64,000 nucleotides of DNA. Origin: Shigella phage SF1-1. The notes beneath the pieces were generated by a model that did no database searches, was not told the DNA's origin, and was given only the letters and a program-made list of their open reading frames with translations. Below are positions 59,749 to 62,850 of this stretch, one piece after another. Each line of letters begins with the position of its first letter. Position 1 is the first letter of the stretch. A program made the translations under genes and the position numbers. Location of the stretch: sequence record PQ571307, one strand, 5' to 3'.

Positions 59749-60117
59749 ATGAAGGTATTAAACTTTTACCATTTAGGCAAAACAATCCCAGATGGTGCTG
59801 TTTATATTGGTAGAGCAATGCCACATATGGGACTAAAAGCCTCTAAGTTTGCAAACCCTTTTAAGTTAAAAGATGATGAACCACGAGGATCAACTATACA
59901 AAGGTATAAAGAGTGGTTGTGGGAGCAAATTCGTTGTGGTAAGATCACTCTTGAAGATTTATTAGAGTTAGAAGGGAAAGATTTAGTTTGCTACTGCTCC
60001 CCTCAACCTTGTCATGGAGATGTATTGGTAGCAGCCGTGGCCTGGGCTAGAAAAGAGTGGGACAAAAGGCATCCTACTTATGTAGACAATTATTGGATTT
60101 GGGAGGAGAATTTTTGA
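59749..60117 (+). CDS. DUF4326-like protein
   Basis: GKDLVCYCSPQPCHGDVL motif, which I recall as the DUF4326 signature. Confidence 0.45.
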   Translation: MKVLNFYHLGKTIPDGAVYIGRAMPHMGLKASKFANPFKLKDDEPRGSTIQRYKEWLWEQIRCGKITLEDLLELEGKDLVCYCSPQPCHGDVLVAAVAWARKEWDKRHPTYVDNYWIWEENF

Positions 60118-60467
60118 AAAATATTATTGATGTAGATGTGTTTGGTATCACAACACTACAAGACAAACAAGCAACATTGTATTACTATAAAAAAGAGGAC
60201 CAAGCTTACATCTACATCGGGGCAGAAAAGTTTGGTGTCGGAGATATGGTTTTAAATGTTGAAGGAGATCTTCCTTTAGAACAAAAGTTGAAAGTTTTTC
60301 GTTTCACAGGAGATGTTAAACTAGACGGCGTTATCGCAATCCTACAAGAAGACCATTATTATATGGTAACTTTCGTTACCCCTGCTTTCTCTGGCCTTAA
60401 TGGAGAAGAAGCTCTTAACGATGTTATTATCTTAAAGATTGGTAATGCTCTAAACGATGTAAACTAA
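60114..60467 (+). CDS. hypothetical protein (TTG start inferred)
   Basis: GGAGGAG RBS followed by an in-frame TTG; the track start at 60057 would overlap the upstream gene by 60 nt. Confidence 0.35.
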   Translation: MKNIIDVDVFGITTLQDKQATLYYYKKEDQAYIYIGAEKFGVGDMVLNVEGDLPLEQKLKVFRFTGDVKLDGVIAILQEDHYYMVTFVTPAFSGLNGEEALNDVIILKIGNALNDVN

Positions 60468-60481
60468 AAGGGGGAGTGAGT

Positions 60482-60991
60482 ATGTTCTTTGATGCAAATT
60501 CTCTTTTTGTATCTACAGCAGGGCAATCAGCTGTTAATGCAGAATTTGAGGAAAGAGAAGAATGGATTGATAATCACAACTACGATCCAAGTAATTTAAA
60601 CTGGTGCAGTTTGGATGTTGGTAATCTTAGTCGAGATAATGCACTTAGAGCATACTACTCTGTATATACTGTTGACAATCTTTATCAATACTACGTGTTT
60701 CGTAGTCTTATTGTTAATCTTAATTTAGCTGGACGTTTAAAGAACAATAAGGCATTCACATTGGGACATTATATTCCCTTCCGTAAAGGTGGTGTGCATT
60801 TTCCATGTAATTGGATTATTCAAACACGAAAAGAAAACAGTTTAGCAGGAGACACCATGCCAAGATTTAAAGATAAGTGGACATGGGAAAAACAAATGGG
60901 GTACATTAATGCACATTTGCCACCTAATCTAAAAGAACCTTATGCCAGCAGAGCTAAGGAAATGATGAGGATTGTCAAGAGTTTTTATTAA
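60482..60991 (+). CDS. HNH-like endonuclease domain protein (tentative)
   Basis: GHYIPFRKGG ... N ... EN spacing resembles an HNH core; ATG after GGGGGAG. Confidence 0.4.
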   Translation: MFFDANSLFVSTAGQSAVNAEFEEREEWIDNHNYDPSNLNWCSLDVGNLSRDNALRAYYSVYTVDNLYQYYVFRSLIVNLNLAGRLKNNKAFTLGHYIPFRKGGVHFPCNWIIQTRKENSLAGDTMPRFKDKWTWEKQMGYINAHLPPNLKEPYASRAKEMMRIVKSFY

Positions 60992-61005
60992 GAGAGGAGA
61001 AATAC

Positions 61006-62598
61006 GTGTCTACACAATTGAGTTTTACACCTACCGAGGAACAATACGCTATTGAAAGCGGGTATAAAGAAAATCGTTTCGTTACAATTCAAGCTAAATC
61101 TGGATCAGGTAAAACGTCAACACTGTATATGTTGGCTAATGGCACAAATGATAGTATTCTATACTTGGCGTTTAACAAAAGTATGGCAGAGGAAGCTCGA
61201 CGTAAAATGCCGCCTAATGTTATGTGCCGAACGCTACATTCTATCTGCTACCAGCGTCTTCCACAAAACCTTCGACACAAATTGTCTCGTCCAGAAGGTC
61301 AATATGTTAACGTAGCTGGAACTGGTAGCGAGATTGCTAAAAAATTCAAGATTCAGAACTTGATCGATAAGAATGGTAAAGTGCTACTGACTCGTGCAAT
61401 GATCGGGTTAATGGTAAAACAAACTTTAGCTAAATACGAGTTTTCTGACGATGAACATATTGGACATAAACATTTTCCTAAAGTGCATATGTCAGATCTT
61501 AAACGTAAGAACATCAACGAACAAAAACTTATTAACGAAGTTGTTAAATATGCAAAGCAACTTTGGCGGGAGCGTATTGATCCTAAATCAGAAACCATTA
61601 TGACTCATGACACCTATGTGAAACTCTTTGAATTGAGTAAAGAAGATTTAGGATACGATATTATTTTTGGAGATGAATTCCAGGATGTTAACCCTGCATT
61701 CCTGTCTATCCTTCGCAATGCTAAATCGGCTAAACGTATTGTTGTTGTGGGTGATGAGTTTCAGAGTATTTATCAGTTCCGTGGAAGCCAGAACATGATG
61801 AAGCAAACGGCTACATATGGGGTTGAGTTGCCTCTGACAGCTTGTTTTCGCTTTGGTCCTAAAGTTGCGGACATTGCTAATGCGATCCTTTCTGATCGCT
61901 CACCTCTGAAGCATCCGCTGGTAGGGAAAGGTTATGATACTGTCACTGGAAGTTTTCATTCTGATGTGGTAGATTATAGTAAACCTTACACCATTATTTT
62001 CCGTAAGAATTTGACCCTGTTGCTCGAAGCTATGGACCGAATCGCTAACGGAGAAGAGATTATTATTAACGTAGATACCAAAGATTTCATTTCTATGGTC
62101 GATAGTGTTAATGCTTTACGTAGAGGTGATTTGGACAAAGTTAAGCATGAGACAGTTCTACCTTACACTTCTTGGGAAGAATTTGTAGAGTGTGCAGAAT
62201 CAGATCCTGATGCAAAACGACTTTTAAACATTGTTGTTTCTGGTAAAGCTAATAATATTGCATACACTTTACGTATGCACCGTAACTCTCCAACGGCTAA
62301 AGTTACTTTAACTACAGCCCACAAATCAAAAGGTTTGGAATGGGATCAGGTTATTGTTGCAAATGACTTCCCTTCTAATTATGATAAGAAGGGTGAGTGG
62401 GTAGGTCTTGAAGAATCAGAACGAAATCTTCTGTATGTTGCACATACACGTTGTATTAAATGTCTGCAATGGAACCGGACTGTTCAAGAGATTTTAGACA
62501 TGCATCGTTTAGGTAAGAGCACGGCTCCTGTATCTGAAGAAGATAAGCTTATAGCTGCCCTTGCTCGTAAGATTAATCAAATCAGAGAGGATCGTTAA
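61006..62598 (+). CDS. UvrD/Rep-like superfamily 1 DNA helicase
   Basis: FTPTEEQ ... AKSGSGKT (motif I), LAFNKSMAEEA (Ia), GDEFQD (II), VGDEFQSIYQFRG (III); GTG start after AGAGGAGAAATAC. Confidence 0.7.
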   Translation: MSTQLSFTPTEEQYAIESGYKENRFVTIQAKSGSGKTSTLYMLANGTNDSILYLAFNKSMAEEARRKMPPNVMCRTLHSICYQRLPQNLRHKLSRPEGQYVNVAGTGSEIAKKFKIQNLIDKNGKVLLTRAMIGLMVKQTLAKYEFSDDEHIGHKHFPKVHMSDLKRKNINEQKLINEVVKYAKQLWRERIDPKSETIMTHDTYVKLFELSKEDLGYDIIFGDEFQDVNPAFLSILRNAKSAKRIVVVGDEFQSIYQFRGSQNMMKQTATYGVELPLTACFRFGPKVADIANAILSDRSPLKHPLVGKGYDTVTGSFHSDVVDYSKPYTIIFRKNLTLLLEAMDRIANGEEIIINVDTKDFISMVDSVNALRRGDLDKVKHETVLPYTSWEEFVECAESDPDAKRLLNIVVSGKANNIAYTLRMHRNSPTAKVTLTTAHKSKGLEWDQVIVANDFPSNYDKKGEWVGLEESERNLLYVAHTRCIKCLQWNRTVQEILDMHRLGKSTAPVSEEDKLIAALARKINQIREDR

Positions 62599-62850
62599 AT
62601 GGCAGGGTATCACATAACAGACATTAAGAAACAACCTTACGGCAGCATAGAAAAGATTAAAGAGGAAGTAGAAGAACTTTTTGATGCTGTTGCGCAGGAT
62701 TGCAAAATAATGCAACTTGTTGAATTGTCAGATATTATAGGTGCTGTTGAGGGAGTTTTAGAACAACAGTTCCCAGATATGACTTTACAAGATTTAATCA
62801 TTATGTCCAACATTACTAAACGCGCTTTCCGCACAGGAGGAAGATCATGA
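62599..62850 (+). CDS. MazG-like nucleotide pyrophosphohydrolase-fold protein (tentative)
   Basis: IKEEVEEL ... ELSDIIGAV pattern resembles the paired EExxE / ExxD helices of small MazG/HisE-like proteins. Confidence 0.3.
   Translation: MAGYHITDIKKQPYGSIEKIKEEVEELFDAVAQDCKIMQLVELSDIIGAVEGVLEQQFPDMTLQDLIIMSNITKRAFRTGGRS

Follow-up and report, generated by a model that had tools for sequence, protein, structure and literature searches.

Whether a group of small genes packed around a helicase gene in a phage genome forms one system, or is a run of genes that each have their own history, is the question raised by positions 59749-62850 of a 64,000-nucleotide stretch of DNA from Shigella phage SF1-1 (sequence record PQ571307; the whole stretch is called the window below). 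A first, sequence-only reading of the window had named four genes in this segment, encoding a DUF4326-like protein, an HNH-like protein, a UvrD-like helicase and a small MazG-like protein. It held the helicase to be atypical, since T4 relies on Dda and UvsW, and suggested that the genes may serve recombination, anti-defence or nucleotide-pool sanitation together. In this study, we find that the region is probably an ordinary segment of a long co-directional transcription unit for DNA and nucleotide metabolism, composed of independently inherited genes and not of a dedicated multi-gene system. We describe the helicase as a predicted intact motor related to human FBH1, and we identify a downstream gene for a seryl-tRNA synthetase (SerRS)-like protein as the conserved partner of the MazG-like gene.

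Gene order and lineage

The four named genes are present on the plus strand, and their labels hold, as judged by the matches to PF14216 and to PF00580/UvrD_C, by a profile link to HNH proteins and by MazG/HisE fold matches. The gene list was incomplete, since a fifth open reading frame (ORF) of 117 amino acids had been omitted. Thus five tightly packed plus-strand genes occupy the segment (Table 1). Intergenic spacing ranges from -4 to +14 nucleotides and a Shine-Dalgarno-like sequence precedes every start. The best plus-strand promoter-like sites lie upstream, at 55877 and 57962, and no convincing plus-strand terminator was found between 58000 and 64000; the genes are therefore probably co-transcribed within a longer unit. 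The G+C content is uniform across the window (about 0.37-0.41) and blocks of strand skew track gene orientation. Because of this uniformity, base composition across the window gives no indication of a foreign or recent island.

Megablast with the segment 59000-64000 yielded 125 matching phage records, mostly Phapecoctavirus and Justusliebigvirus. The top match, with 99.3% DNA identity, is Escherichia phage vB_EcoM_DE16; numerous Phapecoctavirus genomes come next at 96-99%, and 61 records fall in the 60-80% band. The window belongs to Phapecoctavirus (subfamily Stephanstirmvirinae), i.e. to a phAPEC8-like E. coli myovirus of about 150 kb, as its annotated relatives ZCKP1 and DE16 are placed there. 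With best matches to Phapecoctavirus at 98-99% identity, it falls outside the Straboviridae/Tevenvirinae. The comparison with Dda and UvsW is inapplicable, since the window is not T4-like.

For the partners of the helicase we searched within +/-7 kb of helicase homologues in five distant phages and at 80 bacterial loci, using phmmer and hidden Markov models of the families. No relative of the DUF4326, HNH-like, MazG-like or SerRS-like proteins was found near the helicase in Klebsiella phage 05F01, Vibrio phage eugene, Shewanella phage 1/40, PAK_P3 or Acinetobacter phage Aci01-1, and none of these partners was found around the helicase relatives at the 80 bacterial loci. The full cluster is syntenic in Phapecoctavirus and Justusliebigvirus (phi92-like phages) only. 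Since no partners were found at the other loci searched, the gene order is a lineage feature of these genera and not a conserved functional module.

The contrary view would be that the five genes are one module serving, for instance, anti-defence or DNA repair. The DUF4326 protein would then process a signal or adduct derived from ADP-ribose or from a nucleotide, the HNH nuclease and the helicase would act on the DNA so affected, and the MazG-like protein would clean the nucleotide pool. The genes are indeed contiguous, co-directional and nearly overlapping, their synteny is kept in Phapecoctavirus and Justusliebigvirus, and a macro-domain gene, NrdD/NrdG and phosphatases are located downstream of the cluster. 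We nevertheless regard such a module as unlikely. Synteny is lost beyond the two sister genera, and the helicase occurs without the other genes in the five distant phages and in integrative and conjugative elements (ICEs). The HNH-like gene is present in Felixounavirus, a genus that the list of organism names from the helicase search does not contain. DUF4326 homologues are found in 983 phage records, including T4-like phages ('NrdA.1'), Kuttervirus and N4 (gp13). The MazG-like gene pairs consistently with the SerRS-like gene instead, and none of the small genes of the cluster gave a match in NCBIfam or PADLOC. The proposal that the genes act together thus finds whole-cluster synteny in two genera only, each gene being more widely distributed on its own.

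Integrity of the helicase

The helicase matches PF00580 (E=1.4e-19, 71.3 bits; cutoff 23), UvrD_C PF13361 (E=7e-11, 42.5 bits; cutoff 25.6) and PF13245 (AAA_19; 44.1 bits, cutoff 25.1), and UvrD_C_2 also scores above threshold. It belongs to phrog_1967 (E=1.9e-161); among the NCBIfam equivalog models none comes near its cutoff. Towards the N-terminus we recognise motifs Q (Q13), I (30-AKSGSGKT), Ia (53-YLAFNK), II (221-FGDEFQD) and III (247-VVGDEFQSIYQFRG), and in the C-terminal half motifs IV (280-CFRFG), V (436-TTAHKSKGLEWD, including 436-TTAHKSKGLE) and VI (472-ERNLLYVAHTRC, including 477-YVAHTR). Motif conservation was judged in an alignment of 11 sequences (A6) reaching down to 32% identity, where no motif varies in its key residues. 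These are Q13, G33/K36, D223-E224-Q226-D227 and G249-D250-Q253...Y256-R259 in motifs Q to III, and R282, T437-H439-K442-G443-E445 and Y477-V478-T481-R482 in motifs IV to VI. The complete set of N-terminal motifs seen in the sequence-only reading is thus confirmed. Absent or degenerate motifs IV-VI had been named there as the sign of a non-functional remnant; all three are present and nothing in them indicates one.

Several close relatives of the helicase carry inteins. The near-identical proteins P0045 and P0084 are interrupted in the P-loop of motif I (GSGK|...HN|TST), and P0047 is interrupted in motif III (GDEFQ|C...HN|CIYQFRG). The intein-bearing alleles (P0045, P0047, P0084, P0147 and that of phi92) have Intein_splicing, Hint and LAGLIDADG_3 among their Pfam matches. 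In phi92 the protein (gp198) is annotated with two discontinuous domains, and several Justusliebigvirus genomes match the helicase in two pieces. The allele of the window has neither the P-loop nor the motif III intein. An intein in a catalytic motif typically marks a gene whose function is strongly constrained.

A length about 190 residues below that of E. coli UvrD, together with a similarity to UvrD/PcrA that is limited to the motif II-IV and V-VI regions, could suggest that the protein of 530 residues is a degenerate, non-functional UvrD remnant. We give this idea practically no credence. None of the motifs Q and I-VI is missing, all of them are invariant family-wide, and inteins occupy catalytic motifs I and III in relatives; on these grounds the helicase is not taken for a remnant. 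Moreover, it aligns over its full length with the active human FBH1 helicase domain, and the protein is 99.8% identical among many independent isolates. Its short length is best explained by a predicted compact 2B region and by termini without extensions, features that the FBH1 core shares, and not by decay. The helicase is predicted to be an intact and catalytically competent superfamily 1A (SF1A) enzyme.

Kinship, distribution and proposed role of the helicase

In a single-sequence search of the PDB, human FBH1 (PDB 9xzj) is the best match (E=5e-34), and UvrD/PcrA follow at 4e-7 or weaker. With the family profile, FBH1 reaches E=5e-74, profile positions 6-497 aligning with chain residues 371-872. 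PcrA/UvrD come next at 1e-18, their best stretch covering the motif II-IV region alone. The phage protein begins at about FBH1 chain residue 371. As the N-terminal F-box region is missing, the phage helicase is FBH1-like in its motor only and does not count among the F-box helicases. As a 3'-5' SF1 translocase, FBH1 reverses forks and limits RAD51, and an Arg-Lys pair in its 1B region, R447/K448, is required for fork reversal (PMC12946210). In the phage helicase this junction-binding pair aligns with Q87/N88; the basic residues R90, K92 and R95 are near, at positions that are not equivalent to the FBH1 pair.

Helicase homologues were found in 253 phage records, comprising Stephanstirmvirinae, Pseudomonas PAK_P3/KPP10-like, Vibrio, Shewanella and Acinetobacter phages and some actinophages. 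Every close relative of the phage encodes one, so that the helicase is not atypical in its setting. Bacterial genomes contain full-length relatives at 29-35% identity. Both of the two that we examined (29-32% identity) lie within conjugative-transfer regions of ICEs: the relative in P. putida QH1 is located between TraD/DUF4400 and RAQPRD/DUF2895/DUF3438, and that in Vibrio sinensis adjoins TraF and TraH. At the equivalent site of the reference element ICEclc a helicase is absent. The family is a mobile-element clade, present in virulent myoviruses and in conjugative elements.

Elsewhere in its genome, ZCKP1 encodes a 'putative primase/helicase' of 592 residues and a DNA polymerase I (PolA-type), as well as ligases, exonucleases and an exonuclease annotated as RdgC, recombination-associated. 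With a primase/helicase and a PolA-type polymerase already encoded by the phage, the UvrD-type protein is an accessory motor. By homology to FBH1, UvrD, PcrA and Rep, it would translocate 3'->5' on single-stranded DNA. In recombination-dependent phage replication it may strip a recombinase or other proteins from DNA, or remodel stalled forks.

A defence-type role was considered as well, in which the phage would carry the helicase as a Gabija GajB-like or superinfection-exclusion protein. GajB models of PADLOC match it at E values as low as 3e-18, and the profile search of the PDB brings up GajB structures at 1e-14. These scores reflect generic UvrD-superfamily similarity and are far below that of FBH1. 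Furthermore, there is no adjacent GajA/OLD-type (OLD/ATPase-TOPRIM) partner, the neighbouring genes lack PADLOC matches, and the helicase gene sits in a phage DNA-metabolism block. A defence function is accordingly most improbable, and we retain the accessory motor as the preferred interpretation.

The MazG-like gene and its SerRS-like partner

The MazG-like protein scores 17.5 bits against PRA-PH, below the Pfam gathering score of 21.3. The same domain is found below threshold in 14 of its 21 homologues, and each of the four distant orthologues shows it likewise. An AlphaFold2 model (predicted local distance difference test, pLDDT, 89) consists of three helices. In a Foldseek search of the PDB, ranks 1-8 are all HisE/MazG (8 of the 9 best), but with E values of about 1-5. 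The acidic motif EExxE...ExxD (E22, E23, E26, E42 and D45) is invariant in 17 sequences down to 37% identity. Profile searches of the PDB with two alignments returned nothing significant, and hhalign against the phage's own PRA-PH protein of 241 residues gave a probability of 0.2%.

The gene immediately downstream encodes a protein whose family profile matches SerRS in the PDB (6blj, E=2e-10), then many more SerRS chains and subsequently pyrrolysyl-tRNA synthetase. This 184-residue family is predicted to represent a class II synthetase core in truncated form, with SerRS as its closest relative. On two distant metagenomic contigs a MazG-like gene is followed by a SerRS-like homologue (E=1.6e-30 and 1.4e-8), with no helicase nearby. 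The two genes also adjoin each other in phi92, in Caulobacter phage CcrSC (within a tRNA gene array), in Pectobacterium phage phiTE and in Bacillus phage G, where the pair sits beside NAD synthetase and NMNAT; in the T4-like Acinetobacter phage KARL-1 one small ORF separates them. Altogether the pair is found without the helicase in six other lineages. Because the adjacency recurs across distant phages and contigs, the SerRS-like gene, and not the helicase to which the MazG-like gene had been tied, is its conserved partner. The MazG/HisE-like protein would then work with the truncated SerRS-like enzyme rather than with the helicase, and the gene is best considered with this neighbour as a conserved pair. 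In our literature searches we found no prior description of a MazG/SerRS-like pairing.

ZCKP1 contains a second, very divergent SerRS-like paralogue (about 20% identity), which lies near NinI-like phosphatase and DprA/SLOG-like genes.

The DUF4326 and HNH-like proteins

The DUF4326 protein matches PF14216 with E=1e-21 (77.8 bits; cutoff 25) over profile positions 5-81 of 82; a sequence search of the PDB gave no match for it. The domain has been predicted to be an enzyme of the rhodanese-phosphatase superfamily acting on ribose-linked phosphates of ADP-ribose derivatives (PMC9503650). In the cluster it is a stand-alone predicted phosphatase-like enzyme. The public label 'ribonucleotide reductase NrdA-like' is widespread on this gene (ZCKP1 gp171, phi92 gp202), and no similarity of the protein to ribonucleotide reductase was found. 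The label appears to be a propagated corruption of 'NrdA.1-like', as noted for phi92, NrdA.1 being the small T4 ORF beside nrdA. Correction of this misnomer may be a useful by-product of the analysis.

The HNH-like protein has 169 residues from an ATG which is common to all homologues. It has no match in Pfam or NCBIfam, and no curated HNH model or solved HNH structure was matched significantly. Among 5.8 billion proteins searched, the family comprises 15 clusters, all of about 169 residues save one of 151. The family profile, run against 1.84 billion representatives, likewise gave 15 matches, the weakest being P0178 (E=8e-4), which is a canonical HNH protein (PF01844, E=5.6e-12). Aligned by hhalign, the family and P0178 are related with 97.4% probability over residues 85-132 and have a core in common (FTLGHYIPFRKGGVHFPCNWIIQTRKENSLAGD). 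Residues H96, G103, G104 and N110 are invariant, and P99, N119 (at least 90%) and D124 nearly so. H96, N110 and N119 would correspond to the catalytic His, the structural Asn and the metal-ligand Asn/His of HNH enzymes. In the AlphaFold2 model (pLDDT 74) a beta-beta-alpha element is predicted (beta92-96, beta111-115, alpha116-121; loop pLDDT about 55), with helical regions on its N- and C-terminal sides; fold searches with the whole model gave no useful information. The Cys positions of P0178 are replaced in the family. Zinc-binding cysteine pairs are present in many, but not all, HNH subfamilies. The designation 'HNH-like' is thus supported as a remote homology, and a nuclease activity is putative. 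The protein is predicted to be a divergent His-Me-finger nuclease, or a nuclease-derived DNA binder, devoid of zinc cysteines.

In the HNH-like protein, the N-terminus counts as one of the best conserved parts of its family. This part marginally matches the region of the C-terminal helix in RNase H from B. halodurans (EEREEWI..H.Y, E about 0.01), a similarity that was judged spurious and is probably due to chance. Repeat-driven matches of the HNH-like protein to protein A were judged spurious, too.

Concerning the origin of the HNH-like gene, it might be a free-standing homing endonuclease gene that targets the adjacent helicase gene, an intein hot-spot. The protein has HNH-type core motifs, its gene lies directly upstream of a gene with inteins in relatives, and in Vibrio phage eugene a gene for a canonical HNH endonuclease comes just after that of the helicase. 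This origin is nonetheless quite improbable. The family is narrow and uniform in length, and it keeps its position in those close relatives that were examined. Helical regions at both of its termini are conserved, and Pfam shows none of the usual DNA-binding modules of homing HNH enzymes. The family occurs in 423 phage records, among them Erwinia phages and all Felix O1-like (Felixounavirus) records listed in the spread sample; the names of organisms listed in the helicase search include neither Felixounavirus nor the Erwinia phage genera. Such a distribution fits a vertically inherited core gene and not a sporadic homing element.

Features of the region

The coordinates of all features are collected in Table 1. 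The ORF of 117 residues is kept in ZCKP1, DE16 and phi92 and has no match in Pfam, NCBIfam or PADLOC. Upstream of the cluster lies a gene for a protein of 120 residues, the N-terminus of which (MKRLLCVLMLMIATNATA) resembles a signal peptide. In phi92 the annotation assigns a SignalP signal peptide to the orthologue gp204, and Klebsiella phage 05F01 has kept the protein too, encoded ahead of its helicase region. The SerRS-like gene is followed by a gene for 449 residues, the N-terminal part of which is contained in the window. It is labelled 'ribonucleotide reductase' in RefSeq-style records; no Pfam match was obtained at E<=0.1 and the label is doubtful. The genuine NrdD and NrdG come after it.

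Table 1. Coordinates of the genes of the window and of related loci
Feature	Sequence	Coordinates	Strand	Match or remark
Protein of 120 residues, signal-peptide-like N-terminus	window	59026-59388		phi92 gp204 orthologue
phrog_15618 protein, 120 residues	window	59385-59747	+	phrog match
DUF4326 protein, 122 residues, 'NrdA.1-like'	window	59749-60117	+	PF14216, phrog_464
ORF of 117 residues, TTG start	window	60114-60467	+	phrog_8284, E=6.6e-49
Predicted cysteine-less HNH (His-Me finger)-like protein, 169 residues	window	60482-60991	+	phrog_3500, remote profile link
N-terminus of the HNH-like protein	window	60482-60630		
Predicted FBH1-type SF1A (UvrD-superfamily) helicase, 530 residues, GTG start, intein-free	window	61006-62598	+	Pfam, phrog_1967
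MazG/HisE-like all-alpha protein, 83 residues	window	62599-62850	+	phrog_6408, fold model
Predicted truncated SerRS-like class II core, 184 residues	window	62847-63401	+	phrog_4806; 4-nucleotide overlap with MazG-like gene
Gene for 449 residues, N-terminal part	window	63398-64000		
Gene for 449 residues, full	L001	10395-11744		
Intein-bearing helicase allele	L005 (phi92)	4986-7760		
Bacterial helicase relative	L016	5929-7413		
Bacterial helicase relative	L014	5992-7506		
MazG-like/SerRS-like pair	window	62599-63401		overlapping or abutting; SerRS-like about 190 residues
MazG-like/SerRS-like pair	L005	7771-8591		overlapping or abutting; SerRS-like about 190 residues
MazG-like/SerRS-like pair	L012	8001-8847		overlapping or abutting; SerRS-like about 190 residues
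MazG-like/SerRS-like pair	L013	5892-6742		overlapping or abutting; SerRS-like about 190 residues
MazG-like/SerRS-like pair	L094	2483-3308		
MazG-like/SerRS-like pair	L096	2486-3341		
MazG-like/SerRS-like pair	L097	2501-3483		
Divergent SerRS-like paralogue	L006 (ZCKP1)	11049-11621	-	about 20% identity

Discussion

The evidence favours a run of independently inherited genes within a long transcription unit. Several points weigh against this interpretation or limit its parts. Tight packing and whole-cluster conservation across two genera also fit co-function. Fusions of DUF4326 to components of DNA replication or restriction-modification, and of SLOG to HNH and SF1 helicase domains, have been reported (PMC7824862, PMC9503650); on account of these fusions, the sole argument for tying DUF4326 to its DNA-processing neighbours, a functional link among the DUF4326, HNH and helicase activities is possible. 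The MazG-like assignment lies below every curated threshold and stays a putative one. As for the helicase, its presumed polarity, substrate and in vivo role are drawn from homology, and FBH1-like fork reversal in particular stays hypothetical, because the junction-binding Arg-Lys pair is not conserved at the aligned positions.

Taking the two leads together, we put forward a joint proposal, tentatively and at somewhat less than an even chance. First, the MazG/HisE-like protein and the truncated SerRS-like adenylate-forming enzyme may constitute an undescribed two-gene phage module which carries out an aminoacyl-adenylate or nucleotide-modifying reaction, with no link to the sanitation of deoxynucleoside triphosphates or to the helicase. 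Second, the phage and ICE helicase clade may be the closest relative of the eukaryotic FBH1 motor in the prokaryotic world and may serve the phage by remodelling forks or by counteracting a recombinase.

As first stated, the finding of the cluster matters little, the re-described genes being 98-99% identical to dozens of deposited Phapecoctavirus genomes. Two modest leads result from the analysis, namely an FBH1-type helicase clade of mobile elements and the conserved MazG-like/SerRS-like pair. UvrD, PcrA and Rep are far more distant from the motor of human FBH1 than the phage and ICE helicases are. The phage enzyme could serve as a small, F-box-free model for a non-canonical SF1 helicase and gives a hint on the origin of the motor. 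Literature searches revealed no prior description of a link between phage helicases and FBH1 or of a UvrD-type helicase in phAPEC8.

Comparison with known systems

All close relatives of the phage have the cluster. The same genes in the same order are found in phi92 (gp202-gp196, NC_023693), phAPEC8, ZCKP1 and DE16. The phi92 record describes gp202 as 'NrdA.1-like', gp200 as 'predicted HNH endonuclease-like fold', gp198 as 'DNA helicase II / UvrD ... 2 discontinuous domains', gp197 as 'predicted MAZG-type nucleotide pyrophosphohydrolase like fold' and gp196 as 'putative Seryl-tRNA synthetase'. Since phi92 carries the same fold predictions and near-identical sequences are present in dozens of genomes, the cluster is already known at the annotation level. 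phi92 differs by an extra gene of 158 residues (gp199) and by the intein in its helicase.

With HNH proteins (PF01844/HNH_5) the HNH-like protein shares the H...N...N core with GG and P, the predicted beta-beta-alpha element and the profile link to a canonical member. It differs in lacking zinc CxxC pairs and a Pfam HNH match of its own, and in having extra conserved helical termini. The MazG-like protein resembles MazG/HisE in its predicted helical fold, with Foldseek ranks 1-8 at E of about 1-5, and in its invariant acidic motif. In contrast to MazG/HisE, it has three helices only and no gathering-level Pfam score, and its gene is coupled to the SerRS-like gene in all contexts examined, which is not a known MazG/HisE context.

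The helicase shares the superfamily and the catalytic motifs with UvrD, PcrA and Rep, and the Pfam domains UvrD-helicase and UvrD_C are found above threshold. Yet the similarity to these enzymes is far weaker and limited to motif regions, and the phage protein has neither the large 2B domain nor the C-terminal extension of UvrD. From FBH1 it is distinguished by the lack of the F-box, the zinc ribbon and SCF partners, and by an invariant K92 of its own in the motif 91-HKLSRP, followed by an insertion of about 13 residues. The likeness to FBH1 spans the whole helicase core with all motifs and a similarly compact 2B region, and FBH1 is by a wide margin its closest solved structure.

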